Part shown: piece after piece, positions 4,271-55,105 of the stretch | Position numbering within the stretch: the stretch's first letter is position 1 | How the letters are laid out: every line of letters starts with the position of its first letter | From: an uncultured delta proteobacterium | GTDB taxonomy: Bacteria > Desulfobacterota > Syntrophobacteria > Syntrophobacterales > Syntrophobacteraceae | Assembly: GCA_963808625.1 (NCBI GenBank) | Contig: CAWEHK010000037.1 | Coordinates: forward strand, 1 to 64,000 | Reading direction: 5' to 3' | DNA: 64,000 nt | The notes under the pieces: generated by a model | Database searches by the model: none | Seen by the model: the letters and a program-made list of their open reading frames with translations, nothing else | Told to the model about the DNA's origin: nothing | Made by a program: the position numbers and the translations under genes

Positions 4271-4710
4271 GAACACCCTCAAAATTCCCTTAATGGATGA
4301 TGTTGCTTGAAGACCTGGCTTATCCCATGCGAGCGATGCCGTTGCTCCGACTTCAGGAAAACTGACGGCCTACTTAACAGTTTTTCTCGATCATGTCAAA
4401 AAGATGCGATGGCTTGGCATAACCAACCCATCGGAGTTGCACCTTGACGCGCCGTAGTGAAGTGGATAAGCTAGAGCGATTATAGATAGAATCCTTTACG
4501 ATTACGCTGTCACCGCAGGTCTCACTGATGCTTTGCATGAACATCGGGGTCGAGATAGAAGCCTGGGCAATAAACGTCAGGGACGTGACTAAACGTCGGC
4601 TGAATGTGTATAAGTTAGAGTCGCTATAGAAGCCAGACGCATCAAGCGTCATGGAGGGGTACTTGAGTCATCCGATTTCAGCAAACTACCACCCGGTAGG
4701 GAAGGACAAA

Positions 4711-7700
4711 ATGAGAGCGACGAACCAATTCCTGGAGAGGCTTCGTTTTTCCCCAGGCCGGTCACCAGGCAGCCCTCTCGCAATATTGTTAATTTGCCTC
4801 TTTTGCGCCCTCTTCTTCGTTGGCCTGTCGTTGACCATGTCAAGGCCGGCAGAGAAATTACTGCGAGCGGACAGGTATGGCCAGCTCCCACTGTACTTTA
4901 TGAAGAACGAGGGGCAGCTCAATCCTGAGGTGAAGTATTACGAAAGGGGCCTGGGGCATTCCATCTTTTTTTCAGAAGAAGAAATTGTCTTCAGTTTTGA
5001 AAAAACGGGAGACCGTTTTGCTAATTTGTCTGAAGGTGAGTCCGTTGCGAGATCTACGGAAAGATCAAATTCGAGGCGCGGCGAAAAGGGCGCCGAATTC
5101 TCCCAAGTGCGGCTCTTCCCGATCGGCATTCACAAGGATGTCAGGATCGACGGCCAGGAACAACAGGATGGCAGGGTCAACTACTTCCTGGGGAAAGGTC
5201 CCGCGAAGTGGAAGACAAATATTCCAACATATGGATCCATTGTGTATCAGGAAGCCTATCCTGGCATTGATTTCAGATTCTACGGTTCGAATCAGCGTTT
5301 GGAATACGACGTCATCATCAAACCCGGCGCCAAGCCATCCCAGGTCAAGTTCGGATACCAAGGCGTGCAGAATTTCAGAACCACAGAAGAGGGGGACCTG
5401 CACTTAGAACTTCCTGATGGGGGCATCCTGGTTCACAAGAAACCAATGGCGTATCAGGAGATCAATGGGAAACATGTTAACGTCGCCGGAAGATTCGATA
5501 TCGAACAGCGGTCTCCGTACTCCTCAAAGGAAAGTCCTGACTTTGTCTTTGGGTTCGAGGTGGCTTCCTATAACGGAAACTACCCCCTCATTATCGACCC
5601 GGTGCTGGTTTACTCCACCTATGTCGGCGGCTCCGGAAGTGACGCCGGCTATGCCATTGCCGTTGACGCTCTGGGTGGCGCCTATGTGACCGGAAGAACT
5701 TCATCGTCCGACTTCCCCACCAAACCGCACTTGCAGAGCTCCTTTATGGGAGGGAGTGCCGACGTGTTTGTGTTGAAGCTCAATGCGGCGGGGGACAAAT
5801 TAGACTACTCCACCTATTTGGGGGGCAATGATACCCAATCCGGCTACGCCATCGCCGTGGATGAAACGGGCTGTGCCTACATAACGGGAGTGACCACGTC
5901 TCCCGACTTTCCCACCGTTAATCCTTATCCAAGCACCCCTGGGAGCCCAGATTCACCCCGCGCCTTTGTGGTCAAGCTGAACCCCAAAGGGTCGGTGGTC
6001 TATTCGACCTATCTCGGAGCCAGTCAAAGTGACACCGGCCTCGGGATTGCCGTGGACAGGGACGGCAAGGCTTATGTCACCGGTGAGACTTCTTCCTCCG
6101 ACTTTCCCATCGTCGGGAGTGCCTTCACCTATGGCGGCGGATCGTTTGATGCCTTCGTAGCGAAACTCGGTATATCCGGTGATGTACTTGAATATTCGAC
6201 GTTCCTCGGGGGCAATGATACCGACTCCGGTTATGGCGTCGCCGTCGATGATAACGGAAGCATATACATAGCGGGAGAAACTTCTTCATCTGACTTTCCA
6301 ATGGCCGGTGGGGCGCAGATTGAATATGGTGGCGGAGCGGCCGATGCTTTTGTGGTGAAAATCGACGGCACATCTGGTCTCATTGGCTACTCGACTTACC
6401 TGGGCGGCAGCGGCGCCGATTTTGGTCGGGGGATTGCAGTCGACCTTAATCATAGTGTTTACGTCACAGGCAAGACCTCATCGGCTTCTGGCTTTCCCCT
6501 TGCTAATCCCTGGCAGAGCGGGTTCGGCGGCGGTGCATTCGATGTTTTTGTCACGAAACTGGACCCCACGGGATACAGCCTTTCTTACTCTACCTTTCTT
6601 GGGGGCGATGGGAATGATACCGGTCAGGCCATTGCGGTGGACGGTAGCGGCAGGGCTTACGTTACCGGCCAAACCTCCGGGAATTTCCCCACGATAAAAG
6701 CGATCCAAAACGTCCATGGCGGGGGGAGTGCTGACGCTTTCGTCGCAAGGCTCAATGCCATGGGAGATAGCTTGGATTTCTCCACCTATCTTGGGGGCAC
6801 TGCCGATGACATCGGCTATGGCATTGCTACTGACTCCAAAGGCGACATCTACGTGGCGGGGAAGACATCGTCTGTCGATTTCCCCTGGATCGCCAACGCC
6901 TTTATGAAGGTGAACGGCGGAGGCTCTGATGCCTTTGTGGCCAAGCTCAACGCCCTGTTGGCCAGCTTCAGCGCCAGTCCAACCTCTGGTGGATATCCCC
7001 TTACGGTCAAGTTTACAGACCTGTCCGAAGGCACGATCTCGAGTTGGTCCTGGAATTTTGGTGATGGAAATTCCACTACTGCTCAAAATCCAAGCCACAC
7101 CTATGTGGCGCCCGGCAGTTACGCGGTAAGCCTGAAGGTCGGCGGTGAAGCTGGAAATGATACCGAGACAAGGGATGGTTATATTACGGTCACAAAACCG
7201 GACGTTACCATCGTTGCAACAAAGGCTCGTGTCTCTAAAGCGGGATCGGAAAAAGGCGAGTTTACAATTTCCCGCTCATCTTCAACAAGCGTTGACCTGA
7301 CCGTGAATTATACGCTTGGCGGATCAGCCAAGAACGGTATCGACTACCAAGCTTTGCCGGGGTCTGTGATAATTCCTGCGGGCGCCAGCTCTGCTGCCAT
7401 TTCACTCACTCCGATTGATGATGGCATCTATGACGGCAATCAGACGGCAACCGTTGACCTTTCCGGCGGCGCCCTTTATACCGTCGGCTCTCCCAATGCT
7501 GCCACCGTAACCATCGTCGATAATATTTTGCCTGCGGTGAGTGTCACGGCATCGTCTCCAAGCGTTCCGAGGTCAGGGTCGCAATCGGCTCAATTCGTTT
7601 TCACCACCAGCAAGGCTGCTTCCTTTCCGGTGACCGTAAACTACACCGTCGGCGGGACGGCAACCAGCGGCACCCATTTCAAACCCTTGACAGGGCCCGT

Positions 7701-10700
7701 TATCATTCCTGCCGGTTCTACTTCGGCAACCGTGGCGCTCACCCCCGTTGACGGTTTGTATGACGGCAACCACACGGTGGTGGTTACGCTCGCCAGCGGC
7801 TCCTTTTACACCATCGGTTCGCCCGCGACTGCGACGATAACCATCGTGGATAATTTTCCGGTGAGTGTCACGGCATCGACTCCAAGCGTCCCGAGGTCAG
7901 GCTCGCAATCGGCTCAATTCGTTTTCACCACCAGCAAGGCAGCTTCCTTTCCGGTGACCGTGAACTACACCGTCGGCGGGACGGCAACCAGCGGCGCCCA
8001 TTTCAAACCCCTGACAGGGCCCGTTATCATTCCTGCCGGTTCTACTTCGGCAACCGTGGCGCTCACCCCCGTTGATGGTTTGTATGACGGCAACCACACG
8101 GTGGTGGTTACGCTCGCCAGTGGTTCCTTTTACACCATCGGTTCGCCCGCGACTGCGACGATAACCATCGTGGATAATTTGCCGGTGAGTGTCACGGCAT
8201 CGACTCCAAGCGTCCCGAGGTCAGGGTCGCAATCCGCTCAATTCGTTTTCACCACCAGCAAGGCTGCTTCCTTTCCGGTGACCGTAAACTACACCGTCGG
8301 CGGGACGGCAACCAGCGGCGCCCATTTCAAGCCCATGACAGGGCCCGTGATCATTCCTGCCGGTTCTACTTCGGCAACCGTGGCGCTCACCCCCGTTGAC
8401 GGTTTGTATGACGGCAACCACACGGTGGTGGTTACGCTCGCCAGCGGCTCCTTTTACACCATCGGTTCGCCCGCGACTGCGACGATAACCATCGTGGATA
8501 ATTTGCCGGTGAGTGTCACGGCATCGACTCCAAGCGTCCCGAGGGCAGGGTCGCAATCCGCTCAATTCGTTTTCACCACCAGCAAGGCTGCTTCCTTTCC
8601 GGTGACCGTAAACTACACCGTCGGCGGGACGGCAACCAGCGGCACCCATTTCAAACCCATGACAGGGCCCGTTATCATTCCTGCCGGTTCTACTTCGGCA
8701 ACCGTGGCGCTCACCCCCGTTGACGGTTTGTATGACGGCAACCACACGGTGGTGGTTACGCTCGCCAGCGGTTCCTTTTACACCATCGGTTCGCCCGCGA
8801 CTGCGACGATAACCATCGTGGATAATTTGCCGGTGAGTGTCACGGCATCGACTCCAAGCGTCCCGAGGGCAGGGTCGCAATCCGCTCAATTCGTTTTCAC
8901 CACCAGCAAGGCTGCTTCCTTTCCGGTGACCGTAAACTACACCGTCGGCGGGACGGCAACCAGCGGCACCCATTTCAAACCCATGACAGGGCCCGTTATC
9001 ATTCCTGCCGGTTCTACTTCGGCAACCGTGGCGCTCACCCCCGTTGACGGTTTGTATGACGGCAACCACACGGTGGTGGTTACGCTCGCCAGCGGTTCCT
9101 TTTACACCATCGGTTCGCCCGCGACTGCGACGATAACCATCGTGGATAGTTTGCCGGTGAGTGTCACGGCATCGACTCCAAGCGTCCCGAGGTCAGGCCC
9201 GCAATCGGCTCAATTCGTTTTCACCACCAGCAAGGCTGCTTCCTTTCCGGTGACCGTGAACTACACCGTCGGCGGGACGGCAACCAGCGGCGCCCATTTC
9301 AAACCCATGACAGGGCCCGTTATCATTCCTGCCGGTTCTACTTCGGCAACCGTGGCGCTCACCCCTGTTGACGGTTCGTATGACGGCAACCACACGGTGG
9401 TGGTTACGCTTGCCAGCGGTTCCTTTTACACCATCGGTTCGCCCATGACTGCGACGATAACCATCGTGGATAGTTTGCCGGTGAGTGTCACGGCATCGAC
9501 TCCAAGCGTCCCGAGGTCAGGCCCGCAATCGGCTCAATTCGTTTTCACCACCAGCAAGGCTGCTTCCTTTCCGGTGACCGTGAACTACACCGTCGGCGGG
9601 ACGGCAACCAGCGGCGCCCATTTCAAACCCATGACAGGGCCCGTTATCATTCCTGCCGGTTCTACTTCGGCAACCGTGGCGCTCACCCCTGTTGACGGTT
9701 CGTATGACGGCAACCACACGGTGGTGGTTACGCTCGCCAGCGGTTCCTTTTACACCATCGGTTCGCCCGCGACTGCGACGATAACCATCGTGGATAATTT
9801 GCCGGTGAGTGTCACGGCATCGACTCCAAGCGTCCCGAGGTCAGGTTCGCAATCGGCTCAATTCGTTTTCACCACCAGCAAGGCTGCTTCCTTTCCGGTG
9901 ACCGTGAACTACACCGTCGGCGGGACGGCAACCAGCGGCGCCCATTTCAAACCCATGACAGGGCCCGTTATCATTCCTGCCGGTGCTAATTCGGCAACCG
10001 TGGCGCTCACCCCCGTTGACGGTTTGTATGACGGCAACCACACGGCGGTGGTTACGCTCGCCAGTGGTTCCTTTTACACCATCGGTTCGCCCGCGACTGC
10101 GACGATAACCATCGTGGATAATTTGCCGGTGAGTGTCACGGCATCGACTCCAAGCGTCCCGAGGTCAGGCTCGCAATCGGCTCAATTCGTTTTCACCACC
10201 AGCAAGGCTGCTTCCTTTCCGGTGACCGTGAACTACACCGTCGGCGGGACGGCAACCAGCGGCGCCCATTTCAAACCCATGACAGGGCCCGTTATCATTC
10301 CTGCCGGTTCTACTTCGGCAACCGTGGCGCTCACCCCTGTTGACGGTTCGTATGACGGCAACCACACGGTGGTGGTTACGCTCGCCAGCGGTTCCTTTTA
10401 CACCATCGGTTCGCCCGCGACTGCGACGATAACCATCGTGGATAGTTTGCCGGTGAGTGTCACGGCATCGACTCCAAGCGTCCCGAAGTCAGGCTCGCAA
10501 TCCGCTCAATTCGTTTTCACCAGCACCAGAGCGGCCTCGTTTCCGATAACTGTTAACTACACCGCTGGCGGGACGGCAAAAAGCGGCGCCAACTTTCTGC
10601 CGCTGGGGTCCGTAACCATCCCTGCGAACGCCACCTCTACCACCATGACGCTCACCCCTGTTGACGATCATTTGTATGACGGCAACCAAACGGTGGTGGT

Positions 10701-13700
10701 TACACTCGCCAGCGGTTCCTTTTACACCATCGGTTCGCCCGCGACTGCTACCATAACCATCGTCGACAATGATGTGCCTGCGGTGAGTGTCACGGCATCG
10801 TCGCCAAGCATCCCGAAGATAGGTTCGCAAACCGGTCAATTCGTTTTCACTACCAGCAAGGCAGCTTCCTTTCCGGTGACCGTGAACTACACCGTCGGCG
10901 GGACCGCGAAAGACGGCACGAATTACACTCTGTCGGGTTCCAGCACCATTCCTGCATTGGCTACCTCCACAACCCTGACGCTCACCCCTAAGGATGACGG
11001 TTTTTTTGACGGCAACCAAACGGTCATTGTTAATCTCGCCAGTGAGACTTCATACACCATCGGCTCCCCCAATACGGCCACGATAACCATCGTGGGCAAT
11101 GATGTGCCCGTAGCGGTTGTCACGACAGCGTCTTCAAGCGTCCCGAAGATAGGTTCGGAAACCGGTCAATTTGTTTTTTTCACCAGCAAGGCTGCTTCCA
11201 TTCCGATGACCATCAACTACACCGTCAGCGGGACGGCGAAAAGCGGCACGAATTACACTTTATCAGGCTCCGGCACCGTTCCCGCGTGGGCTATTTCCAC
11301 AACCCTGACGCTCACTCCTAAGGATGACGGTTTCTATGACGGCAACCAAACGGTGACCGTTAACCTTGCCAGTGGGTCCCTCTACACGGTCGGCTCTCTT
11401 AGTATCGCCACCATAACCATCGTGGGTAATGATTTGCCCGCAGTCAGTGTCACGGCGCCGTCTCCAAGCGTCCCCAAGTTAGGTACGCAAACCGGTCAAT
11501 TCATATTCTCCATTACCAGGCCAGCCGCATTTCCAGTGTCCGTGAACTACATCGTAGGCGGGACGGCAAAGAGCGGCGGCAATTACATTTTATTGGGGTC
11601 CAGCACCATTGGCGCATACGCGACATCCACAACCATGACTCTCCTACCCAAGGATGATGGTCTGTATGGCGGCGACCAAACGGTCACCATTAACCTTTCC
11701 AGTGGGTCCCTTTACACTGTCGGCTCTCCTGACGCTGCCACCATAACCATCGTGGGCAATGATTTGCCGGTGGTCAGTGTCATCGCACCGTCTCCAAGCA
11801 TCCCGAAGTTGGGTTCGCAAACCGGCCAATTCGTTTTCTTTTCTTCCAGGCCAGCCTCCTTTCCTTTGACTGTAGCCTATACTTTAGGCGGCACGGCAAA
11901 AAGCGGCGCCAATTATATTCTGGCAGGATCCAACACGATTGCGGCACTCGCCACTTCCGCCTCCCTTACCGTCACACCCAAGGATGACGGCCTTTATGAC
12001 GGCAACCAGACGGTTATTGTTAATCTTTCCGGGAGCACCTTTTACACTGTCGGCTCTGCCAATACTGCTGCCATAACCATCGTGGATAATAATTTGCCCA
12101 CGTTGAGCGTCGCCGGGATACCTGCAAGCATCCCACACCTGGGGCCGCAAACCGGTCAATTCGTTTTCTCAACCACAAAGGCTGCGTCCTTTCCGATAAT
12201 CGTTAACTACACCGTTGGGGGGACCGCAAAAAGCGGCACTCATTATACGTTGTCAGGGTCCAACACTATTGCTGCCCTTGCGACCTCCACAACCATTACG
12301 GTCACACCCCGGGATGACGGTCTTTATGACGGCAACCAGACGGTCATCGTCAGCCTTTCCGGGAGCGCCTCTTACACTATCGGCCCTGCGAATACCGCCA
12401 CCATAACCATCACGGACAACAATTTACCCACGTTAAGCATCGCTGCAATCCCTGCAAGCATCCCAAAGCTAGGGCCCCAGACCGGTCAGTTCGTTTTCTC
12501 CACCAGCAAGGCGGCTTCCTTTCCGATAACCGTTAACTACATCGTCGGGGGGACGGCAAAAAGTGGCACTCATTACGTTCTTTCAGGGTCCGGCGCCATC
12601 CCTGCGTTCGCCACTTCAGCAACCCTGACGCTCACCCCTTTTGACGACGGTTTGTATGATGGTAACCAAACGGTTGTCATTACGCCTTCCAGCAGCCCCC
12701 TATACAATGTCGGCCTACCCGGTAATGCGATGATCACCATCGTGGATAATAATTTGCCTGTGGTCAGTATTACGGCAATGTCTGCCACCGTTCCCAAGCT
12801 GGGGCCGCAGACTCAATTTGTCGTCTCTCAATCCCGCAAAGCCTCTATCACGATGACCATAAATTACACGACTGGCGGGTCGGCGACGGGTGACGTCAAT
12901 TACCAAAAGCTGCCAGGATCCATCACCATTCCTCCTGGCTCCGTGTCTGCAAGCATTCCGCTCGCACCCATTGATGACGGTTTGTATGATGGCAACCAAA
13001 CGGTAGTGGTTACGCTTGCCAGCGGCCCCCTTTACGCTCTCGGTTCTCCAAAGAGTGCGGTAGTCACCATCGTGGATAATAATTTGCCTGCGGTGAGTGT
13101 CACGGCATCGTCTCCAAGCATCCCGAAATCAGGCTCGCAATCCGCCCAATTCGTTTTCACCAGCACCAGAGCGGCATCGTTTCCGATAACTGTTAACTAC
13201 ACCCCGGGCGGGACGGCAAAAAGCGGCGCCAATTATGTGCCGCTGGGACCCGTCACCATCCCTGCGAACGCTACTTCCACCGCCCTGACGCTCACCGCTG
13301 TAGACGACCATTTGTATGACGGCAACCAAACGGTGGTGGTTGGGCTCGCCAGCAGTTCCTTTTACACCATCGGTTCGCCCGCGACTGCTTCGATAACCAT
13401 CGTCGACAATAATGTGCCAGCGGTGAGTGTCACGGCATCGTCTCCAAGCATCCCGAAATCAGGCTCGCAATCCGCCCAATTCGTTTTCAGCAGCACTAGA
13501 GCGGCTTCGTTTCCGATAACTGTTAACTACACCCCGGGCGGGACGGCAAAAAGCGGCGCCAATTATGTGCCGCTGGGACCCGTCACCATCCCTGCGAACG
13601 CCACCTCCACCACCTTGACGCTCACCCCTGTTGACGACCATTTGTATGACGGCAACCAAACGGTGGTGGTTACGCTCGCGAGCGGTTCCTCTTACACCAT

Positions 13701-16700
13701 CGGTTCGCCCGCGACTGCTACCATAACCATCGCCGACAATAATGTGCCAGCGGTAAGTGTCACGGCATCATCCCCAAGCATCCCGAAATCAGGCTCGCAA
13801 TCCGCACAATTCGTTTTCACCAGCACCAGGGCGGCATCGTTTCCGATAACTGTTAACTACGCCCCTGGCGGAACGGCGAAAAGCGGTGCCAATTATGTGC
13901 CGCTGGGACCCGTCACCATCCCTGCGAACGCTACTTCCACCGCCCTGACGCTCACCGCTGTTGACGACCATTTGTATGACGGCAACCAAACGGTGGTGGT
14001 TACGCTCGCCAGCGGTTCCTTTTACACCATCGGTTCGCCCGAAACTGCTACCATAACTATCGCCGACAATAATGTGCCAGCGGTGAGTGTCACGGCATCG
14101 TCTCCAAGCATCCCGAAATTAGGCTCGCAATCCGCACAATTCGTTTTCACCAGCACCAGAGCGGCCTCGTTTCCGATAACTGTTAACTACACCCCTGGCG
14201 GAACGGCAAAAAGCGGCGCCAATTATCTACCGCTCGGACCCGTCACCATCCCTGCGAACGCTACTTCCACCGCCCTGACGCTCACCGCTGTTGATGACCA
14301 TTTGTATGACGGCAACCAAACGGTGGTGGTTACGCTCGCCAGCGGTTCCTCTTACACCATCGGTTCGCCCGCGACTGCTACCATAACTATCGCCGACAAT
14401 AATGTGCCAGCGGTGAGTATCACGGCATCGTCTCCAAGCATCCCGAAATCAGGCTCGCAATCCGCACAATTCGTTTTCACCAGCACCAGAGCGGCCTCGT
14501 TTCCGATAACTGTTAACTACACCCCTGGCGGAACGGCAAAAAGCGGCGCCAATTATCTACCGCTCGGACTCGTCACCATCCCTGCGAACGCCACCTTCAC
14601 CACCATGACGCTCACCGCTGTTGACGATCATTTGTATGACGGCAACCAAACGGTGGTGGTTACGCTCGCCAGCGGCTCCTTTTACACCATCGGTTCGCCC
14701 ACGACTGCTACGATAACCATCGCCGACAACAATTTGCCCGCGGTGAGTGTCATGGCATCGTCCCAGAGCATCCCGGAAAATAGCCTGCAACCCGGCCAAT
14801 TCGTTTTTACCAGCACCAGAGCGGCTTCGTTTCCGATAAGCGTTGACTACACCCCTGGCGGGACGGCAAAAAGCGGTACCCATTTCCAACCCATGACAGC
14901 ACCCGTCATCATTCCTGCCGGTTCCACTTCTGCAACGATCGCGCTCCAGCCTATAGATGACGGATTATATGACGGCAACCAGACGGTTGTGGTTACCCTT
15001 TCCAGTTCCAGCGGCGCTCCTTACAAAGTCGGCAGTCCCAACACCGCCACCATTATCATTCTAGAGAGAGATCTCCCGACAGTTACCATCAAGGCTACGC
15101 AACCCAATGCCGTAGAGCCCTCGGTTACTGGTCTGTTTACTGTTTACCGGACGGGAACCACCACGTTGCCGCTCACCGTCACCTATAGCGTTGATGGTAA
15201 TGCAACGAGTGGCGTCCAATATGTGAAGCTTTTGGGCGCAGTAACTATTCCTGTGGGAGCCAGTTCGGTAGACATCGTGGTGCAGCCCCTTGATGACTCC
15301 ATCATGGAAGGGTCGACTACGGTCATCGTTACTATCTTATCCCCTGGTTCCTATAATGTCGGCGTCCCCAACAGCGGTACCGTTACGATTGCTGATAACG
15401 ACGCCCCTACTGTGACTATTGCGGCGAGTGACAATCGTGGAATCGAAGAAGGCATGGACCCGGGATCATTCCTGGTGTCCCGCAAGGGAAACACCAAAGG
15501 GGCGCTGACCGTTTACTATACGATCAGCACCAGCGGGTGGGCCGCAACCAATGGCGTTGATTACAATTATCTTCCTGGATATGTGGTGATCCCGGATGGT
15601 AATGCATCTGCAAGCATTCAGGTGGTGCCTATTGATGATTCACTTCCCGAAGATCGAGAAACCGTTATCTTGGCCCTTGCCGCTAATGGCTGGTACAAAA
15701 TCGGCTCTCCATCCAGCGCCACGGTCTATCTTGCTAACAACGATCTCAGCACCGCGACCATCGTTGCCTCTGATGACAATGCATCGGAGGCTGGTCCCAA
15801 GAGTGGGAAATTTACGGTTACCCGTAATTCGAAGCAAAATACTCCCCTGATTGTCTATTACACCGTTAGCGGCTCAGCTCAAAATGGGACGGACTACGAG
15901 AGGCTTAATGGTACGGTGAGTATTGCTGCGGGCACCGCTTCGACAGACTTCTTCGTAGCTCCCAAGGATGATACGGTATACGGAGGAGATCGAACCGTTA
16001 TTGTGACCCTTTCAGGAAGTGTTTATTACCTCCTCGGTAAGCCCAACAAGGGAACGGTCATTATTCATGACAACGACCTTCCAACAGTAAGTATCACGGC
16101 GCCTGTGAAGATTATCGAAGAAAATGGAACAACGGTTGGTCTTTTCACGGTAAGTCGAAAAAGCGGTGAGTCCAACGCCTGGCCTCTATCGGTGAACTAT
16201 GATAGCTCCGGCGGTACCGCAATCAATGGTATCGACTATAATGGAGTGCTCTCTGGAACAGTTACCATACCAGCCGGTGATGATAATACAAGCATTCAGA
16301 TCACTCCCATTGATGATAAGATAATGAAGGGGACCAGGACCGTTACCGCTACCCTGACGTCCAGCACTGCTTACAAGATCGCTTCTCCTGTCACGGCCAC
16401 AATTAGTATTATGGATGATGAATGGCCAAAAGTAGCTGTTGGAGCAACCAGTGACCTGGTTTCCGAGGCTGGAACGAATCCAGGTAAATTCACTATTTAC
16501 CGGACCGGGGACATGAGTTCTCCTTTAACCGTCAACTACACGATGGGTGGAAGCGCCTTTTCTGGTACTGATTATGTGGCCCTTCCCGGCAAGGTGACCA
16601 TCCCTGCCAATACATCTGCCATGGACATTGAGTTAACGCCAATAGATGATAAGACGGTGGCGCCTGACAAGACGGTGGTCCTCACCATTTCTGACAGCTC

Positions 16701-18897
16701 TTCCTATTACACCGATTCGACGACAAATCACGCAACCCTGATAATTGTCGATGCTGAACAACCCAAAGTATCCATATACATGGTGCAGAACGCCAGCGAA
16801 TCAGGAATGGTGGGACGGTTCAGGGTTCAACGATTCGGCAACTGTCATCATGACCTGACCGTAAACTACACTTCCAGCAGCACCGGTCAAAAAGATGTTA
16901 ACTATGTCGCCCTTCCAGATTATGTGACCATTCCTGCAGGTCAAGCCTTTGCCTTCATCGATGTGACGGCAATAGACGATAATCAGTCTCTGGGAGACGT
17001 GACTCTTAATGTTGCGCTCTCGCCGGATCCCCTGCCCAATCTCTCATACGCCTTGGGCACGCCAACGAGCGCCTGGCTGCTTATTATCGACACTGACCCC
17101 CCGGTTGTTGTCATCAAGGCAAGCGAGAGCAGCATCATCGAGACCGGCGTCACCACCGGCAAATTCACTGCCACCCGCACGGGCTCAACCGTCTCAGCCT
17201 TGGTTGTTCAGTATGATCTGGGGGGAACGGCAAAGAGCGGCGTGGATTTCAAATCCCCTCCGTTCCCCCTCTTGATTCCTGCCGGTAAGGCATCGGCAGC
17301 TATTAATGTAACCCCCATTGATGACAAGGAATACAAAGGGGACAGGACGGTTGTCGCTACGTTGTTGAGCAGTTCCAGCTCCGCTTACTATTTGGGCGCT
17401 CCTGACAATGCGACTATTACTATCCGTGACAATGAGTTGCCGACTGTCAGTATCACCGTGGCCGATGCCGTCGCCAACAGACCAGGCAATACGGGAAGGT
17501 TCAAGATTAACCGGACGGGTATTACAAGCGCCCCGCTAAAGGTTAAGTACAGCACCGACGGCACGGCGACGAATGGTACGGATTACAAAAAGCTTGCCGG
17601 CGCCGTCACCATTCCAAAGGGTTCTTCATCGGTCAGCATCCTGATAACGCCTGCCGGCCCTAAAGCGAAAGTCAATAAGACTGTTATCCTCAAGCCTAAG
17701 TCGAGTACTGTCTACTCTTTGGTTGCACCGAAGAGCGGGACCGTCACCATCCTGGCTGACAACCTTCCGAAAGTAAGCGTCGTTGCCTCTGACCCGACTG
17801 CTACGGAACCGGGCCTGAAGGAAGGCAAGTTTACGGTGAGTCGAACCAGAGATACGACCTCTGCGTTGACGGTCCAATACACCCTCGGCGGTACGGCCAA
17901 AAATGGTACAGATCATGTCACCCTGCCGGGAACGGTAATGATCCCTGCCGGAGCATTGTCAGCAGACATCGCCGTGACCCCTGTGGTCGATGCAATCGTC
18001 GACGACAATCAGACGGTTGTGCTCAGACTTGCAGAAACCACAGCCTACATCTCAGCAGCGCCAAGCAGCGCCACCGTCACCATCAAAGACAACAGCCCGC
18101 CGAAGGTGACCATCAAGGCAAAGGATACCAGCATCTCGGAAGACGTCGCCACACCCGGGCAATTCACCGTTACCCGCACCCGCACGGGCGCACCGACTTC
18201 AGACCTGCTTGTCAATTATGAGGTCGGCGGGACGGCAAAAGCAAATGTGGACTATAAAGCTCTTTCCAAGTCGCTGGTGATCCCCGCTGAATCATCTTCG
18301 GCAAATATCGACGTAACACCGATCGATGATAACGTTTCCAGGGGGGATAGGACGGTTATTGTTAGCCTTTCGAGTAGCACCGACTACGATTTGAGCTCCC
18401 CGGACAATGCTACGATGACTATTCTGGAGAATGATTTGCCAACGGTCAGTATCTCGGTAACCGATAATACCGCAGCTTTACCCAGCAACAACGGAACCTT
18501 TAAGATCAAGCGGGCAGGAATTACCACCAACTCGCTGGCGGTCAAGTATACCATTGATGGGACAGCCAAGAACGGCGTCAACTACAAGAAGCTTACCGGC
18601 ACCGTCACGATCCCAGCGGGTTCGTTGTCGGTAAACATCCAGATCACACCCCTTGACGATGGCCAGCCGCCTGCGGATAAATCCGTTATCTTAACCCTTG
18701 CACCCAGTAGCGCTTACACCATTGGCTTGCCAGCGAGTGGGACCGTCACCATTCTGGGAGACGATGTTCCGAGCGTTCCGATTGTCACTTTAGACCCTAA
18801 GGTCTGGGAAGAGAGTCCGAGGGAGGGGAAAGTTGCTGCCAAGAGAACCGGGGCCATGGGGTTACTTCCCTCGAAGACTAATTTCAAAGCGTCATGA
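4711..18897 (+). CDS. Giant surface protein/adhesin (~4730 aa): N-terminal hydrophobic anchor, SBBP beta-propeller repeats, PKD domain, ~35 Calx-beta domains
   Basis: Uninterrupted ORF with AAGGA RBS before ATG 4711. YSTYLGG..D.G.GIAVD..G.AYVTG.T.S.DFP (SBBP). FTDLS...WSWNFGDG...NPSHTY (PKD). Repeated TVNYT.GGTA..G.DY...V.IPAG...PIDD...G.QTV (Calx-beta). Confidence 0.9.
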   Translation: MRATNQFLERLRFSPGRSPGSPLAILLICLFCALFFVGLSLTMSRPAEKLLRADRYGQLPLYFMKNEGQLNPEVKYYERGLGHSIFFSEEEIVFSFEKTGDRFANLSEGESVARSTERSNSRRGEKGAEFSQVRLFPIGIHKDVRIDGQEQQDGRVNYFLGKGPAKWKTNIPTYGSIVYQEAYPGIDFRFYGSNQRLEYDVIIKPGAKPSQVKFGYQGVQNFRTTEEGDLHLELPDGGILVHKKPMAYQEINGKHVNVAGRFDIEQRSPYSSKESPDFVFGFEVASYNGNYPLIIDPVLVYSTYVGGSGSDAGYAIAVDALGGAYVTGRTSSSDFPTKPHLQSSFMGGSADVFVLKLNAAGDKLDYSTYLGGNDTQSGYAIAVDETGCAYITGVTTSPDFPTVNPYPSTPGSPDSPRAFVVKLNPKGSVVYSTYLGASQSDTGLGIAVDRDGKAYVTGETSSSDFPIVGSAFTYGGGSFDAFVAKLGISGDVLEYSTFLGGNDTDSGYGVAVDDNGSIYIAGETSSSDFPMAGGAQIEYGGGAADAFVVKIDGTSGLIGYSTYLGGSGADFGRGIAVDLNHSVYVTGKTSSASGFPLANPWQSGFGGGAFDVFVTKLDPTGYSLSYSTFLGGDGNDTGQAIAVDGSGRAYVTGQTSGNFPTIKAIQNVHGGGSADAFVARLNAMGDSLDFSTYLGGTADDIGYGIATDSKGDIYVAGKTSSVDFPWIANAFMKVNGGGSDAFVAKLNALLASFSASPTSGGYPLTVKFTDLSEGTISSWSWNFGDGNSTTAQNPSHTYVAPGSYAVSLKVGGEAGNDTETRDGYITVTKPDVTIVATKARVSKAGSEKGEFTISRSSSTSVDLTVNYTLGGSAKNGIDYQALPGSVIIPAGASSAAISLTPIDDGIYDGNQTATVDLSGGALYTVGSPNAATVTIVDNILPAVSVTASSPSVPRSGSQSAQFVFTTSKAASFPVTVNYTVGGTATSGTHFKPLTGPVIIPAGSTSATVALTPVDGLYDGNHTVVVTLASGSFYTIGSPATATITIVDNFPVSVTASTPSVPRSGSQSAQFVFTTSKAASFPVTVNYTVGGTATSGAHFKPLTGPVIIPAGSTSATVALTPVDGLYDGNHTVVVTLASGSFYTIGSPATATITIVDNLPVSVTASTPSVPRSGSQSAQFVFTTSKAASFPVTVNYTVGGTATSGAHFKPMTGPVIIPAGSTSATVALTPVDGLYDGNHTVVVTLASGSFYTIGSPATATITIVDNLPVSVTASTPSVPRAGSQSAQFVFTTSKAASFPVTVNYTVGGTATSGTHFKPMTGPVIIPAGSTSATVALTPVDGLYDGNHTVVVTLASGSFYTIGSPATATITIVDNLPVSVTASTPSVPRAGSQSAQFVFTTSKAASFPVTVNYTVGGTATSGTHFKPMTGPVIIPAGSTSATVALTPVDGLYDGNHTVVVTLASGSFYTIGSPATATITIVDSLPVSVTASTPSVPRSGPQSAQFVFTTSKAASFPVTVNYTVGGTATSGAHFKPMTGPVIIPAGSTSATVALTPVDGSYDGNHTVVVTLASGSFYTIGSPMTATITIVDSLPVSVTASTPSVPRSGPQSAQFVFTTSKAASFPVTVNYTVGGTATSGAHFKPMTGPVIIPAGSTSATVALTPVDGSYDGNHTVVVTLASGSFYTIGSPATATITIVDNLPVSVTASTPSVPRSGSQSAQFVFTTSKAASFPVTVNYTVGGTATSGAHFKPMTGPVIIPAGANSATVALTPVDGLYDGNHTAVVTLASGSFYTIGSPATATITIVDNLPVSVTASTPSVPRSGSQSAQFVFTTSKAASFPVTVNYTVGGTATSGAHFKPMTGPVIIPAGSTSATVALTPVDGSYDGNHTVVVTLASGSFYTIGSPATATITIVDSLPVSVTASTPSVPKSGSQSAQFVFTSTRAASFPITVNYTAGGTAKSGANFLPLGSVTIPANATSTTMTLTPVDDHLYDGNQTVVVTLASGSFYTIGSPATATITIVDNDVPAVSVTASSPSIPKIGSQTGQFVFTTSKAASFPVTVNYTVGGTAKDGTNYTLSGSSTIPALATSTTLTLTPKDDGFFDGNQTVIVNLASETSYTIGSPNTATITIVGNDVPVAVVTTASSSVPKIGSETGQFVFFTSKAASIPMTINYTVSGTAKSGTNYTLSGSGTVPAWAISTTLTLTPKDDGFYDGNQTVTVNLASGSLYTVGSLSIATITIVGNDLPAVSVTAPSPSVPKLGTQTGQFIFSITRPAAFPVSVNYIVGGTAKSGGNYILLGSSTIGAYATSTTMTLLPKDDGLYGGDQTVTINLSSGSLYTVGSPDAATITIVGNDLPVVSVIAPSPSIPKLGSQTGQFVFFSSRPASFPLTVAYTLGGTAKSGANYILAGSNTIAALATSASLTVTPKDDGLYDGNQTVIVNLSGSTFYTVGSANTAAITIVDNNLPTLSVAGIPASIPHLGPQTGQFVFSTTKAASFPIIVNYTVGGTAKSGTHYTLSGSNTIAALATSTTITVTPRDDGLYDGNQTVIVSLSGSASYTIGPANTATITITDNNLPTLSIAAIPASIPKLGPQTGQFVFSTSKAASFPITVNYIVGGTAKSGTHYVLSGSGAIPAFATSATLTLTPFDDGLYDGNQTVVITPSSSPLYNVGLPGNAMITIVDNNLPVVSITAMSATVPKLGPQTQFVVSQSRKASITMTINYTTGGSATGDVNYQKLPGSITIPPGSVSASIPLAPIDDGLYDGNQTVVVTLASGPLYALGSPKSAVVTIVDNNLPAVSVTASSPSIPKSGSQSAQFVFTSTRAASFPITVNYTPGGTAKSGANYVPLGPVTIPANATSTALTLTAVDDHLYDGNQTVVVGLASSSFYTIGSPATASITIVDNNVPAVSVTASSPSIPKSGSQSAQFVFSSTRAASFPITVNYTPGGTAKSGANYVPLGPVTIPANATSTTLTLTPVDDHLYDGNQTVVVTLASGSSYTIGSPATATITIADNNVPAVSVTASSPSIPKSGSQSAQFVFTSTRAASFPITVNYAPGGTAKSGANYVPLGPVTIPANATSTALTLTAVDDHLYDGNQTVVVTLASGSFYTIGSPETATITIADNNVPAVSVTASSPSIPKLGSQSAQFVFTSTRAASFPITVNYTPGGTAKSGANYLPLGPVTIPANATSTALTLTAVDDHLYDGNQTVVVTLASGSSYTIGSPATATITIADNNVPAVSITASSPSIPKSGSQSAQFVFTSTRAASFPITVNYTPGGTAKSGANYLPLGLVTIPANATFTTMTLTAVDDHLYDGNQTVVVTLASGSFYTIGSPTTATITIADNNLPAVSVMASSQSIPENSLQPGQFVFTSTRAASFPISVDYTPGGTAKSGTHFQPMTAPVIIPAGSTSATIALQPIDDGLYDGNQTVVVTLSSSSGAPYKVGSPNTATIIILERDLPTVTIKATQPNAVEPSVTGLFTVYRTGTTTLPLTVTYSVDGNATSGVQYVKLLGAVTIPVGASSVDIVVQPLDDSIMEGSTTVIVTILSPGSYNVGVPNSGTVTIADNDAPTVTIAASDNRGIEEGMDPGSFLVSRKGNTKGALTVYYTISTSGWAATNGVDYNYLPGYVVIPDGNASASIQVVPIDDSLPEDRETVILALAANGWYKIGSPSSATVYLANNDLSTATIVASDDNASEAGPKSGKFTVTRNSKQNTPLIVYYTVSGSAQNGTDYERLNGTVSIAAGTASTDFFVAPKDDTVYGGDRTVIVTLSGSVYYLLGKPNKGTVIIHDNDLPTVSITAPVKIIEENGTTVGLFTVSRKSGESNAWPLSVNYDSSGGTAINGIDYNGVLSGTVTIPAGDDNTSIQITPIDDKIMKGTRTVTATLTSSTAYKIASPVTATISIMDDEWPKVAVGATSDLVSEAGTNPGKFTIYRTGDMSSPLTVNYTMGGSAFSGTDYVALPGKVTIPANTSAMDIELTPIDDKTVAPDKTVVLTISDSSSYYTDSTTNHATLIIVDAEQPKVSIYMVQNASESGMVGRFRVQRFGNCHHDLTVNYTSSSTGQKDVNYVALPDYVTIPAGQAFAFIDVTAIDDNQSLGDVTLNVALSPDPLPNLSYALGTPTSAWLLIIDTDPPVVVIKASESSIIETGVTTGKFTATRTGSTVSALVVQYDLGGTAKSGVDFKSPPFPLLIPAGKASAAINVTPIDDKEYKGDRTVVATLLSSSSSAYYLGAPDNATITIRDNELPTVSITVADAVANRPGNTGRFKINRTGITSAPLKVKYSTDGTATNGTDYKKLAGAVTIPKGSSSVSILITPAGPKAKVNKTVILKPKSSTVYSLVAPKSGTVTILADNLPKVSVVASDPTATEPGLKEGKFTVSRTRDTTSALTVQYTLGGTAKNGTDHVTLPGTVMIPAGALSADIAVTPVVDAIVDDNQTVVLRLAETTAYISAAPSSATVTIKDNSPPKVTIKAKDTSISEDVATPGQFTVTRTRTGAPTSDLLVNYEVGGTAKANVDYKALSKSLVIPAESSSANIDVTPIDDNVSRGDRTVIVSLSSSTDYDLSSPDNATMTILENDLPTVSISVTDNTAALPSNNGTFKIKRAGITTNSLAVKYTIDGTAKNGVNYKKLTGTVTIPAGSLSVNIQITPLDDGQPPADKSVILTLAPSSAYTIGLPASGTVTILGDDVPSVPIVTLDPKVWEESPREGKVAAKRTGAMGLLPSKTNFKAS
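7537..10452 (+). repeat. Nine near-identical 324-bp tandem repeats (108-aa Calx-beta units)
   Basis: gtgagtgtcacggcatcg recurs at 7537, 7861, 8185, 8509, 8833, 9157, 9481, 9805, 10129 and 10453. Confidence 0.95.
13093..14742 (+). repeat. Five near-identical 330-bp tandem repeats (110-aa Calx-beta units)
   Basis: Unit starts at 13093, 13423, 13753, 14083 and 14413. A further copy of this type starts at 10453. Confidence 0.95.
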
Positions 18898-21726: not shown

Positions 21727-21769
21727 GAAAACAAAAGAGCCGTGGGACCACTTCGGGATACCCACGGCT
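21727..21769 (-). terminator. Attenuator terminator (T1) in the aroF leader
   Basis: Minus strand AGCCGTGGG-14 nt-CCCACGGCT followed by CTTTTGTTTTC. Confidence 0.8.
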
Positions 21770-21821
21770 TCGATGCACTCAATTAGACTAAACTGGCAGC
21801 CTCACATATCCCAAGCGCTCC

Positions 21822-21866
21822 CTAAGGTCCGCTGCAATAATAATAACGATAATATTTCGCAACCAT
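21822..21866 (-). CDS. Tyr-rich leader peptide MVAKYYRYYYCSGP
   Basis: GGGGAG RBS, ATG at 21866, five TAT codons within six positions, TAG at 21822. Directly upstream of T1/T2 and aroF-tyrA. Confidence 0.85.
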   Translation of the reverse strand: MVAKYYRYYYCSGP

Positions 21867-21896
21867 CAGTTCTCCCCTACTTTCATTTTGTGGCTA

Positions 21897-21926
21897 ACAG
21901 TAACGAAAAAGAAAATACCTTGTCAA
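21897..21926 (-). promoter_or_regulatory. Putative sigma70 promoter of the aroF leader
   Basis: TTGACA-18 nt-TACTGT on the minus strand, about 30 nt before the leader ATG. Confidence 0.5.
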
Positions 21927-27069: not shown

Positions 27070-27846
27070 CTACCTTGTAACCCCCCGTTTTGAACGACCC
27101 AGCATAAACTGGATGAGGTTTTCCACTTCCGGGACCGGCTCCACTTCCTGACGAATTGTCGCGATCGCGTCAGCAACCGTGAGTCCGGATCGAAACATGA
27201 TCCGGTAGCTTTTCTTTAAAGCCTGGATGGTGGTCCTGGGGAGACCACGCCGCCTCAGCCCAACCAGGTTTGGGCCATAAAGTTTGGCCGGGAGCCCAAA
27301 ACCAAGCATGTAGGGTGGCATATCCATCCTCACCCCCGATTTTCCGCCAACAAAAGCGTAGGCGCCAATGCGAATAAACTGGTGGACGGCCACCAGGCCT
27401 CCTAAGATGGCGTGATCATCAATGCGCACATGTCCGCCCAGGGTTGATACATTTGCCAGGATGACGTAGTTGCCGATAGTGCAGTCATGAGCGACGTGGG
27501 CATAAGCCATGAGCAAATTATGGTTGCCAATGCGGGTAATACCGCCACCCCGCTGGGTCCCGCGGTTGATCGTGGCACTCTCCCTGATGGTATTGTCATT
27601 GCCGATTACCACTTGCGTCTCTTCACCACGGTAGCTCAAGTCCTGGGGAGGGTAGCCAATGGTGGTGAAAGGAAAAATCTGATTGCGCTCACCAATCGTC
27701 GTCCAGCCATCAATTATGGCATGGGGTCCCACGACCGTACCGGAACCGATGGTAACCCGTGGGCCGATGATGGAATAAGCTTCTACCTTGACGTCTTCAG
27801 CCAGTTCCGCTTGGGGCGACACCACCGCCGTGGAATGAATCTCCAT
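27070..27846 (-). CDS. lpxA: UDP-N-acetylglucosamine acyltransferase (in frame with upstream fabZ, has its own RBS)
   Basis: Hexapeptide repeats, PQDL.Y.GE, IRE..TINRGT, MAYAHVAHDC, VHQF. AAGGAGGT before ATG 27846. Confidence 0.9.
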   Translation of the reverse strand: MEIHSTAVVSPQAELAEDVKVEAYSIIGPRVTIGSGTVVGPHAIIDGWTTIGERNQIFPFTTIGYPPQDLSYRGEETQVVIGNDNTIRESATINRGTQRGGGITRIGNHNLLMAYAHVAHDCTIGNYVILANVSTLGGHVRIDDHAILGGLVAVHQFIRIGAYAFVGGKSGVRMDMPPYMLGFGLPAKLYGPNLVGLRRRGLPRTTIQALKKSYRIMFRSGLTVADAIATIRQEVEPVPEVENLIQFMLGRSKRGVTR

Positions 27847-28329
27847 ATGAGGGCTTACCTCCTTCCTACCGGATAAGGCATCCATCTTCGACTTGCCAGT
27901 TTCAAGAGTCGCCAAAACTTCGGCTTCTGCCACCAACTGATCATTAACGAAGGCCTCCCCTTTCATTTTGAACACCGCTCCCCGCTGTTTGATCAGTCTG
28001 ACCTTCAGGATCAATTGATCACCGGGTCGAACAGGCTTGCGAAAGCGCACCTTGTCGAGTCCCATCAAATAGACCGCAGATCGTTCCTCCTGAGGATTAC
28101 GGGCACACGCCCAGAGCCCTCCAGTTTGAGCCAGGGCCTCAATGATCAGGACCCCGGGCATGACCGGGTGCGCTGGAAAATGGCCCTGAAAAAAGGGCTC
28201 ATTGATGGTTACATTCTTCAGCCCCACGATTTCGTCTTCACTAAAGATCAAAACCCGGTCCAATAAGAGAAACGGATATCGGTGCGGCAACAGTTTCAGG
28301 ATTTCAAGAATGTCCTTTTCCATAGTCAT
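27847..28329 (-). CDS. fabZ: 3-hydroxyacyl-ACP dehydratase (no stop codon; reads into lpxA)
   Basis: [46 protein letters not shown]. Confidence 0.9.
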
Positions 28330-41880: not shown

Positions 41881-42877
41881 CTACTTCAGGACACCCTTTT
41901 CCTTGAAGAATTTCTGGGACCCGGGATGCAGGAAGTTCAACGCGTCAGGGGTCACCTGGTTGACGGCCGTCTCCGGGGTCATCTTGGTGGCGTCTTTCCA
42001 TACCGCAGAGAGCTCCTGGGTGCCGAGCCGAAGATGGTCTTCACGATCTCATACATCCGGTCCGCGGGGAAGTCGTCCATGGCGGTCAACACCGCCGTGA
42101 TGGCGATGGCCGGCACATCGCTTTCCACCCCGGAGTAGATGCCCTTCTCGAAAAGCGGTCGCGTGGAAGACACCGGGGTTGGCTTTCATGATTTGCTCGC
42201 GAACCTCACCGTCTACGGGCAGCAGGACGATCTTCAGGCCCGGGGTGGACGCGAGATCGATGATGGACGAGGTGGGCACGGCCCCGCTCCAGAAGAAGGC
42301 CTGGATCTTGCCGTCCTTCAGGGCGGCCACGGACTCGGTCGCCCCCAGTTTCTCGCGGCTGAAATCCTTGTTCCAGTCGAACCCGAGCGCCTTGAGCACG
42401 TAGTCGGCCTGTTCTTCCGTACCGCTGTTCGGGGCGCCGGTGGACACGCGCTTGCCCTTGAGGTCCATCAGGGTCGTGATCCCGGTCCCTTCCTTGGTCA
42501 CAATATGCAGCGGCTGCTCGTAGAAACCCAGGACCAGGCGGACCTTGTGCTGGCCCGGACAGGCCGGGGACCTTGCCCTCGTTCGCCCAGACCACGTGAT
42601 AGTCATAGCAGAAGGCCATACCCGCACGGCCTGCGGTGAGCAGTTTGAGATTGTCGATGGCCGCGGTGGTGGCCTCGGAAGTCGCTTCGGTGTTGGGGAC
42701 GTTGGTGCCAATCAGTCCCCCGATGGCGCCGCCCAGCGGATACCACACCCCTCCGGTGCCGCCGGTGGCGATGCTGAAGGAGAACTTGCCCGCGGCATGT
42801 ACTCCGGGCGCCGCCCAAACCAACAGGGCAAGAACAGTGGTGATGCAGGCAATGGTCCTGAAGCTTCGACTTTTCAT
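41881..42877 (-). CDS. TAXI-family TRAP solute-binding protein (frameshifted)
   Basis: SIATGGTGGVWYPLGG, DLKGKRVSTGAPNSGT, ALKDGKIQAFF, LHPG..KFFKEKG across frames. Confidence 0.85.
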
Positions 42878-43018
42878 GGCAATCCTCCTTAAGTTATCGA
42901 TTAATTTTGACTTCTGATTTTGGCCCCCGAAAAACAAGGGCAGCCACTCCGCAGAGACACGACATCTCAGCCGAGAAACCTCTGTAGCTCATTCGCCGAA
43001 CGATCTCGAAGCCGGCCG

Positions 43019-44903
43019 TTATCCCGCTTGCTGCCCTTCTCGGCGATGTGCCGACAGATTGTGGAGGACAACGAACATGCCAACCGCCAGGGGCGCCAAC
43101 CCCTGCAACGACAGCCCGATAGGGAACAATGCCATGGCCATCGCCGCAGCAATCAGGAGGCCCGTTCCACCATGTTCAGGGAGCTTTGGAAGTGGCCCAC
43201 AATGCCGAGCGAGAGCAGAAACAGAGCGGCCACACTGGTGAGGGTTGCCAGGAGAAAGCCGGGCAGGGTCGCATCGACGATAAGCAGATTTGCTCCCTCT
43301 GGTGTGACCGAAAAGAAGAACGGCACCAGGAAGGCCGGCAGCGAATACTTCCAGGCCTGCATCATCGACCCGAACGGGTTGCCGCCGGTGATCGCCGCCG
43401 CCGCTGAGGGTGAGAGGCCAACCGGTGGTGAGACCTCGGAAAGCACCGCGAAGTAAAAGGCAAGCAAGTGTGCCACGTGGACCGGGACCCCCACCTTTAC
43501 CAAGGCCGGGGCGACCATCACCACGGTCATGATGTACGTGGCCGTGATCGGCAGGCTCAGGCCAATGATCATGGACGCCACCATGGCGAGCAGGATGGCG
43601 AGTATCCGCGAGCCGCCGCTGGCGGACATGATCAGGCCCGAGATCTTGAGCCCCAATCCGGTGAGGGTGAAGGTGCCCACAATCAACCCGGCGGCAGCCA
43701 GGAGTACGGAGACTGGGAGCACGTTCTTGCCGCCTTCGATGACTGCCTCGATAATTTTCCGGGGCGTCAACCATTCGCTCCGGTCCTTGCTGAGAAAGCT
43801 CGTGAGCACGGTCGTCAGCAGGGCGCCGATGGCTGCGTATTCCGGAGACTTGTTCCAGACAGCCAGAAGCAGGATGAGCACCACCAGAGAGATCAGGTGA
43901 TATCCCTTGGTTCGCATGACCTGCCTACGGTCTTGGCTTCCGCCTCCGGAGGAACGAAACGGTATCGCCGCGCTTCCATTTCCAACACAAAAAAAGTCCC
44001 CAGGTAGTAGAGGAGCGTGGGCACGAGCACCATCACCACCACCTCGAAGAAGGTGACATTCAGGAACTGCATGATGAGGAAAGCGGCGGCGCCCATGAGC
44101 GGCGGGGAAATGACGGCGCCGATGCCGCCTGCCGAAATCAGCCCCGCAGCCATATTTGCCGAATAGCCCGCTTTCTTGAGGATGGGCCACATGATGGGGG
44201 CCACCGAAATCGTGGTGGCGACCCCGCTTGCCTGCGGGCCGCCCAGAAGCGCCGTCGTGATGAGGGCGCCGCGACCGGCGCTGGCCGAGGTGCGACCCAT
44301 GGTCGCCAGCGACAGGTCCAGCCAGAAATTGCCGGCGCCGGCTACGTCCATAAAGGTCCCGTAGACCACGAACAGCAGGACGAAGGACACGCTCACGGAG
44401 ATGGGCACGCCGAAGATGCCCTCAAGGGTCATGAACATATGGCCGACGATCCGGTCGATTTCATAGCCCCGATGAGAAAGGGCGCCCGGTAAATAGTACC
44501 CGAAATAGGTGTAAAGCAGGAAACCCAGTACGACGAGGGTGAAGGTGTTGTCCACCACGCGCCGCGAGAGTTCCAGCAGCAACAGGATGGCAGCGATCCC
44601 GAAAAAGACGTCCAGGGGGTCGGGAAGCGTCGAGCGACGGAGAAACTGGTCGAGGTCGCTGAGGGCGTAAACAATGCACGCCGCACCGAGAACGGCCAGG
44701 GTTATGTCAAGGTAAACAGACCAGCGGCCGGCTCTTGGGAAAACCGGGTAGACCAGAAAACCCAAGGCGAAAATGAACCCCAGGTGGACCATGCGAAAAG
44801 TGTGGGTTTCCACCGGGAAGACGGCGCCATAGAGGGACCAGCCAACGAAGGCCGTGTAGAGAATGCCGATAAAGACCGCGGATCTACCGAGAACTTCTCG
44901 CAT
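43019..44903 (-). CDS. TRAP transporter fused permease (4TM/12TM), frameshifted
   Basis: EGIFGVPI.VS, SG.AT, G..I.PP.MGAAAF, G..LP.TATYI, H...FYFA.LS.VSPPV across three frames. Confidence 0.85.
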
Positions 44904-45040
44904 TACTTCCCCTCCATGGGACCGTCACCTTGTCTCCTTAATCCCAAATATGCCGATGCCTTGTCAAGGAGGCAGAACAAAATATTTGGACTATTGCGCA
45001 ACTTGATGAGGCGGTGCGATTTCTCCCCGCCAGCAGGCAA

Positions 45041-45430: not shown

Positions 45431-45592
45431 AGCGCTCCCTCCTTTATCCCGTGCTTTGTAAACATGACCAGTAACGAAATCCGCAGCTCCCGCCTGCCTT
45501 CGAGAGTGGGCGCTTATGCTCACTTTCTTCGGCTTCATGCTTTCGGCTCCCCGGTATTCCCACGCTTCGTTGTGACCTTCTTGGTGTGGCAA

Positions 45593-46272: not shown

Positions 46273-46325
46273 GGCATCCTCGCATAATACGGTTTCGGTA
46301 GTATGGTATTACGATAAATCATGAA

Positions 46326-46990: not shown

Positions 46991-47139
46991 GGCCCCCTGG
47001 AAATCAAAGCCATTTCGTGTGGGCGAAATGGCAAGGAAAAGGCCGAAGAAAACGGCATGGCACCCTTCTTAACCGGAAACCCTGGACTCATTTCTCACCA
47101 ATCAAAATGGGGCTCTTTGTCGTCGGCCCCGATAGCTTT

Positions 47140-47396: not shown

Positions 47397-47469
47397 TCAA
47401 ACACAAGCCCGCTCGGGTGTGACACCAGAGTCATTCATGACCCTTTGGGATACCCCTAAACCATGCAAA

Positions 47470-55076: not shown

Positions 55077-55105
55077 AGAAATATTACAGAAAGAGACCAC
55101 CAACA

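Follow-up and report, generated by a model that had tools for sequence, protein, structure and literature searches.

A putative tyrosine-codon leader attenuator with two terminators ahead of aroF-tyrA in an uncultured member of the Syntrophobacteraceae

We identified a leader region ahead of the aroF-tyrA genes of an uncultured delta proteobacterium (Syntrophobacteraceae) that was probably (at roughly 85%) a ribosome-mediated transcription attenuator, in which stalling on Tyr codons under a shortage of charged tRNA-Tyr would turn on aroF-tyrA. The leader lay on the minus strand of the window, by which we mean the whole 64,000-nucleotide stretch of contig CAWEHK010000037.1 (assembly GCA_963808625.1) that was analyzed. 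A short upstream open reading frame (uORF) with a Tyr run, two terminators (T1 and T2) and alternative pairings could be read from the sequence, and tyrosine would be the signal to which this arrangement responds. Judged in this way, the leader appeared to carry the sequence-testable marks of a classical leader-peptide attenuator, and its weak point was the partial masking at the stop codon in this copy.

The leader and its operon in the window

The features of the locus, all on the minus strand, were the following.

21926-21921, minus: -35 hexamer TTGACA (sequence)
21902-21897, minus: candidate -10 hexamer TACTGT, weak, 3/6 consensus, 18-nt spacer (sequence)
21877-21872, minus: leader RBS GGGGAG (sequence)
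21866-21822, minus: leader uORF of 14 codons, ATG at 21866, TAG ending at 21822, peptide MVAKYYRYYYCSGP
21854-21837, minus: five TAT codons within six uORF positions
21820-21798, minus: segment 2, which supplies the antiterminator's 5' strand and has its core at 21812-21806 (pairing and comparison)
21769-21749, minus: segment 3, 5' arm and loop of T1 and also 3' strand of the antiterminator (pairing and comparison)
21769-21728, minus: terminator T1, 3:4 stem 21769-21738 (-18.7 kcal/mol) and interrupted U-tract 21737-21728
21747-21738, minus: segment 4, 3' arm of T1
21714-21706, minus: A-rich stretch that could pair with the T1 U-tract and lengthen the 4:5 helix
21702-21665, minus: second terminator T2 with a short U tail; segment 5 is 21702-21691 and segment 6 is 21682-21673
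21622-21617, minus: RBS of the DAHP synthase gene
21607-20594, minus: aroF-type DAHP synthase, type I-beta (PRK08673, 495.9 bits against a cut-off of 335; TIGR01361 above cut-off)
20515-19580, minus: predicted tyrA, prephenate dehydrogenase family (PRK11199 at E 1e-60 and PRK08655, all below cut-offs)

We proposed the following sequence of events. When tyrosine is plentiful, the ribosome would arrive at the stop codon and sit over the 5' side of segment 2; T1 (3:4) would form and the transcript would end near 21730. Any leak past the weak T1 U-tract would then be stopped near 21667 by T2 (5:6), which is free to form. When tyrosine is scarce, the ribosome would be halted at 21854-21837 and segment 2 would bind segment 3 before segment 4 appears. 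The freed segment 4 would then take segment 5, T1 and T2 would both be disarmed and aroF-tyrA would be transcribed.

The initial annotation of this DNA had described most of these parts within 21727..21926. The 14-codon uORF with its GGGGAG RBS was found where it had been drawn, with all five TAT codons and with no Phe or Trp codon. T1 was likewise in its proposed place, as was the antiterminator, in which 21820-21798 pairs with 21769-21749. The downstream genes, which had been named aroF and tyrA, matched DAHP synthase and prephenate dehydrogenase-family profiles. The proposed promoter held only in part, since the TTGACA hexamer was present but its -10 partner was weak and the start site was putative. 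The extent was also revised: the parts within the annotated interval were real, but the element ran on to T2.

A consensus promoter and terminator scan of the window called neither the leader promoter, which was missed because its -10 element is weak, nor T1. Among the leaders compared below, a TTGA[CT] word preceded the start by at most 130 nt in 41/41, and TAnnnT stood 16-19 nt away from it in 16/41. At gathering and E-value thresholds, Rfam placed no relevant family on the leader, and no Trp, Phe, His, Leu or Thr leader model matched it. A rule that combined an RBS, a short ORF with at least four Tyr in eight codons and a terminator gave four matches in a genome-wide scan (4.8 Mb), and all four were ahead of aromatic-pathway genes (three aroF-tyrA, one pheA). 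Given this specificity, the element in the window was not a chance arrangement.

The nearest named records of the DAHP synthase were Syntrophobacteraceae and Syntrophobacterales MAGs at 77-87% identity. Two more mntR-tyrA-aroF-lipid A neighborhoods, with frameshifts, were present on contig C33 of the assembly (~42800-57200 and 183300-194100). A triplication of aroF-tyrA in the window organism was considered and rejected, since these copies were whole neighborhoods including lipid A genes and had 77-87% identity; they probably came from related organisms whose DNA entered the bin, or from a chimeric contig. Elsewhere in the window, 4651-18897 (plus strand) held a surface-protein-like, repetitive ORF of 4748 codons with many tandem repeats of ~108-110 residues. 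At 27070-28329 (minus strand), FabZ-like and LpxA-like sequences (by eye) shared one 419-codon frame, possibly through a fusion or a missing stop.

Conservation of the Tyr run and of the pairings

An orthologue search covered 61 genomes, and we examined the 39 whose listed match was a close orthologue (at least 66% identity). Among the matches listed, the remaining genomes had only paralogues of ~50-57% identity and were left out of the count. The initial annotation had pointed to relatives as the place to look for a conserved Tyr run and covarying stems, and both were found there. Namely, a Tyr-run uORF with T1 preceded the orthologous operon in 37 of the 39 genomes examined (among the matches listed), although these genomes were non-independent kin and relatedness inflates both conservation and pairing counts. 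All 37 genomes examined from the same order (among the matches listed) had the uORF and T1, with truncation at a contig end in one. The two genomes without the element belonged to another order, and in these a coding frame, which by eye we take to be TrpA-like, stopped ~70 nt ahead of aroF.

For comparison we used a set of 43 leaders, made up of the 37 genomes, the two extra copies on contig C33 and four non-duplicate named loci; the duplicated loci L045, L046, L048 and L075 were removed before counting, and 41 leaders had a full ORF. These 41 contained 228 Tyr, 67 Phe and 23 Trp codons, with at least three Tyr codons each. Tyr exceeded Phe in 39/41, and six lacked Phe altogether. TAT accounted for 70% of the leader Tyr codons as against 47% in long ORFs. 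The uORF ranged from 14 to 36 codons, and the residues around the Tyr run were variable. Among the first 30 loci tyrA adjoined aroF in 29, the exception being a locus that stopped at a contig edge. In most relatives the antiterminator strand (segment 2) lay within the uORF; in the window and four congeners the TAG was shifted upstream, to just before segment 2.

Pairing was counted on a plain MAFFT alignment of the 41 leaders, and compensatory changes were seen in T1 and in the antiterminator. T1 was paired in 99.2% of cells and had two-sided changes at 5/9 pairs. In the window register the antiterminator was paired in 80.2% of cells, 17 of them two-sided; none of 500 shuffles was as high, and slid controls gave 15-58%. 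Since the antiterminator register slides between clades, an alignment-free partner-swap test was added. A leader's own strand outbound the mean partner of other genera in 38/43 leaders (18/22 genera), and the own partner was strictly the best in only 9/43. The antiterminator duplex beat shuffles at p<0.05 in 29/43 leaders and did not in 14/43. In the free window leader, the segment 2:3 duplex (-27.7 kcal/mol) corresponded to the MFE, with z = -3.45 for the whole region. On this comparative evidence, T1 and the antiterminator appeared as conserved, mutually exclusive pairings that share the T1 5' arm.

Ribosome position, the second terminator and alternative readings

Equilibrium folding was non-discriminating as a test of the switch. 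T1 prevailed even under a stalled ribosome in 31/41 leaders, which implied that the switch must be kinetic, the choice being settled ahead of the synthesis of segment 4. In snapshots of the transcript before segment 4, the T1 arm was blocked with a median probability of 0.87 when the ribosome stood at the Tyr codons (41 leaders). With the ribosome at the stop codon, the median was 0.20 for a footprint of 9-12 nt and 0.07 for 15 nt, and 33-40 of the 41 leaders switched by more than 0.3. When all leaders were modelled without a ribosome, blocking of the T1 arm fell by more than 0.2 in 16/41.

For the window leader, the full-length model gave a P(T1) of 0.00 at the last Tyr codon and of 0.64, 0.93 and 1.00 at the stop for footprints of 9, 12 and at least 13 nt. 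When the RNA on the 5' side of the ribosome was retained in the model, the values at the stop for the same footprints were 0.26, 0.85 and 1.00. In the snapshot at the stop, the T1 arm was still blocked at 0.86 with a footprint of 9-13 nt and at 0.11 with 15 nt. The suggestion of the initial annotation that a ribosome at the stop masks the antiterminator agreed with the window models only at footprints of ~12-15 nt or more; because the early TAG stands just before segment 2, this masking is partial in the window copy and depends on the footprint assumed. The free window leader folded into the antiterminator, with a P(T1) of 0.001. This preference suggested that no 1:2 protector is at work in the window copy and predicted that an ATG mutant would read through.

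The T2 hairpin repeated the 5' arm of T1. The 5' arm of T2 can pair with the freed 3' arm of T1, so that a single stall would likely open both terminators. T2 was present in 25/43 leaders (21 by a strict rule, and the window, L002, L008 and L034 by inspection, having been missed through a threshold or over-extension); segment 5 alone was present in five, and 13 had no second hairpin. Before segment 6 exists, the 4:5 helix had a probability above 0.8 in 26 of the 28 leaders modelled. Once segment 6 was present, T2 won at equilibrium in 9/28, the window included (0.93). From these pairings it seemed reasonably probable that the freed segment 4 disarms T2 via segment 5 in a relay. A 4:5 duplex was also found in 27/30 leaders of paaK (see below), which had the same twin layout though their T2 was unlike T1. 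The U-run of T1 was of five or fewer in 19/25 leaders with T2 and of at least six in 13/13 leaders with a single terminator, the groups being hand-assigned and the leaders non-independent kin. If the relay is true, opening two weak terminators in a single step would multiply the ratio of on to off expression.

It was plausible, though less likely than not, that the same Tyr switch operates but that T2 is merely a duplicated, weak back-up terminator, which is unswitched and constantly trims read-through. Such a role would fit the resemblance of segment 5 to segment 3 and to a terminator motif of the whole lineage: almost every leader terminator in the lineage carried one shared arm motif, and the 4:5 complementarity may therefore be partly a by-product. 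It would also fit the equilibrium preference for T2 over 4:5 in the nine leaders above and the absence of T2 together with segment 5 from 13/43. However, a constitutive terminator before aroF would lower induced expression, and segment 5 was kept without T2 in five leaders. Moreover, at the sites where the T1 arms disagree, segment 5 tracked segment 4 at 22, segment 3 at 11 and neither at 15, with 14 of the 22 segment-4-tracking sites coming from a single genus. The spacer between segments 4 and 5 also often folded, drawing the two together.

Other readings concerned the signal or the state of the switch. That the leader reads aromatic amino acids broadly, or the modification state of a tRNA, rather than Tyr alone appeared unlikely. 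The 67 Phe and 23 Trp codons of the relatives and the mixed codons of the phylum-wide homologues would suit a broad sensor, as would aroR of Corynebacterium, which has a Tyr codon and whose reported response is confined to Phe (PMC11802643, in the part of the text available). The excess of TAT in the leaders could in turn reflect wobble-dependent slowing. Against a broad sensor stood the five Tyr and zero Phe or Trp codons of the window leader, the 6/41 Phe-free leaders and the presence of tyrA in the operon. The position of the stop just upstream of segment 2, with free-RNA and short-footprint models that favor the antiterminator, could instead mean that the switch has decayed in the window genome, with the antiterminator prevailing and the operon expressed for the most part constitutively. 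This was distinctly unlikely, since five genomes of the genus kept the stop position with the Tyr run, the RBS and both terminators, and since the full-length model switched P(T1) from 0.00 to 0.93-1.00 at footprints of 12-15 nt. We gave very little weight to a functional Tyr-rich peptide, or to a protein or ligand in place of the ribosome as the driver of the RNA switch. Conservation was limited to the Tyr run, peptide length and sequence varied, and the codons downstream of the run varied with the RNA pairing. In favor of a protein, a TyrR-type HTH activator was encoded in the assembly, but its gene neighbored an aminotransferase-like gene on a different contig, and the window had no TyrR-box match.

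Known systems and the wider aromatic leader family

In the E. coli trp, phe and his leaders, a 2:3 antiterminator is set against a 3:4 terminator, and the his leader forms a chain of hairpins but has a single terminator. The window leader differed from the E. coli leaders in that it would sense Tyr codons and had two terminators, apparently no 1:2 protector and no Rfam match. What appeared novel was Tyr as the probable sensed amino acid together with the probable two-terminator relay, the design itself being that of the classical trp, phe and his leaders. According to the available part of PMC11802643, E. coli trpL, pheL-pheA, pheM-pheST and hisL were alike in having a short uORF with codons for the product and a U-tract terminator upstream of biosynthetic genes.

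Tyr sensing by attenuation was proposed in 1980, when Camakaris et al. put forward a Tyr-tRNA hypothesis for aroF-tyrA of E. coli (as cited in the available parts of PMC2659441 and PMC8632094), and this hypothesis has been used to label a Shewanella motif. Tyr sensing was reported absent from the aroR-aroF attenuator of Corynebacterium glutamicum, which responded to Phe and on which Tyr had no effect (Neshat et al. 2014, as summarized in PMC11802643, PMC11525245 and PMC4046766, each in part). Both aroR and the window leader are, as far as those texts go, leader-peptide attenuators at a DAHP synthase gene with a Tyr codon, but aroR has only Phe-Tyr-Phe, whereas the window leader has five Tyr, no Phe and tyrA downstream. 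Table 7 of PMC1173090 listed attenuators predicted in the Merino database before tyrA operons, among them one for DAHP synthase I-beta > tyrA of Thermus thermophilus; in the part of that paper available, the words "leader peptide" occurred zero times and there was no Syntrophobacterales entry. The Camakaris hypothesis and these predictions concerned the same gene pair as the window, yet the available portions described neither a Tyr leader peptide nor a test of one. In Acholeplasma, a different phylum, the uORFC-13-1 motif (Brewer et al. 2021, PMC8632094, in part) is a predicted uORF with a terminator upstream of aroF that its authors read as Phe-sensing. The view of the initial annotation that Tyr attenuation is rarely described agreed with the literature searched, which lay largely outside the subscription journals and in which neither a demonstrated Tyr-sensing leader peptide nor a twin-terminator attenuator was found.

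T-box riboswitches (RF00230) and TyrR also control tyrosine genes, by tRNA charging or tyrosine, and neither matched here. RF00230 had no match in the assembly (84.6% complete), and the TyrR box had 0 matches in the window at up to two mismatches. By inspection, the HTH match mentioned above looked like an unrelated PAS/sigma-54 activator and was rejected as TyrR. In the same incomplete assembly, no tRNA-Tyr gene was found and a Trp-leader scan gave no match.

Similar leaders stood ahead of other operons, and their codon content tracked the operon: Tyr ahead of aroF-tyrA, Phe ahead of paaK and mixed codons ahead of pathway-entry genes. At G000:C52 (~44430-44240, minus strand; L122), a Phe-rich twin-terminator leader preceded genes for a phenylacetate-CoA ligase, an ACT-domain protein and an ABC transporter. 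With its counterparts L123-L151, such paaK leaders were Phe-rich in 28/30 loci (206 Phe as against 35 Tyr), which suggests that phenylacetate is used for making phenylalanine. At G000:C42:17907-17770 (minus strand; L152), a leader with five Tyr, two Phe and one terminator preceded pheA-aroD-aroE-aroA. A similar leader was found no more than 600 nt away in 8/30 loci of this operon and was absent from the closest congener locus (L153). Further observations in this genome were a Leu-run leader with a terminator ahead of leuA (2-isopropylmalate synthase; G000:C2:52822, plus strand, L217) and similar hairpins before the indolepyruvate oxidoreductase alpha gene (G000:C50:73254, plus strand, L219) and a branched-chain ABC binding protein gene (G000:C10:70236, plus strand, L218). 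In the 90 nt inspected at L218 and L219 there was no control-codon uORF.

A covariance model built from the 41 leaders and run on 150 genomes of the phylum matched 60 of them at E values of at most 0.001, these values being rough. Among the best 26 loci outside the training set, 25 had an aromatic-rich uORF. The 22 downstream genes scanned encoded ADH synthase (10), DAHP synthase (8), shikimate kinase (2), TrpE (1) and an aminotransferase (1). The leader of the trpE locus contained WWWW, and those of the pathway-entry genes were mixed Tyr/Phe. At distant DAHP synthase loci, a uORF with at least four Tyr in eight codons was found at 5/72. Leaders with Tyr, Phe and in some cases Trp codons, followed by terminators, were also seen before DAHP synthase genes in other phyla (L062 and L089, Anaerolineales; L114 and L117, Brocadiaceae). 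In a record titled Candidatus Woesearchaeota (L067), a short ORF with a Tyr/Phe run at its end lay ~313 nt upstream of a DAHP synthase gene, and a clear terminator was not seen at that locus.

Taken as a whole, the evidence inclined us, with slightly better than even confidence, to a fuller view of this leader as a Tyr-only attenuator with twin terminators opened by a relay, the Tyr branch of a phylum-wide family that is retuned for each operon and that may replace TyrR and T-boxes in these anaerobes. Such leaders annotate the metabolism of the genes downstream, as with paaK. The leader is a short sequence and directly testable. If the proposed mechanism is true, tyrosine would join the amino acids that are sensed by ribosome-mediated attenuation.
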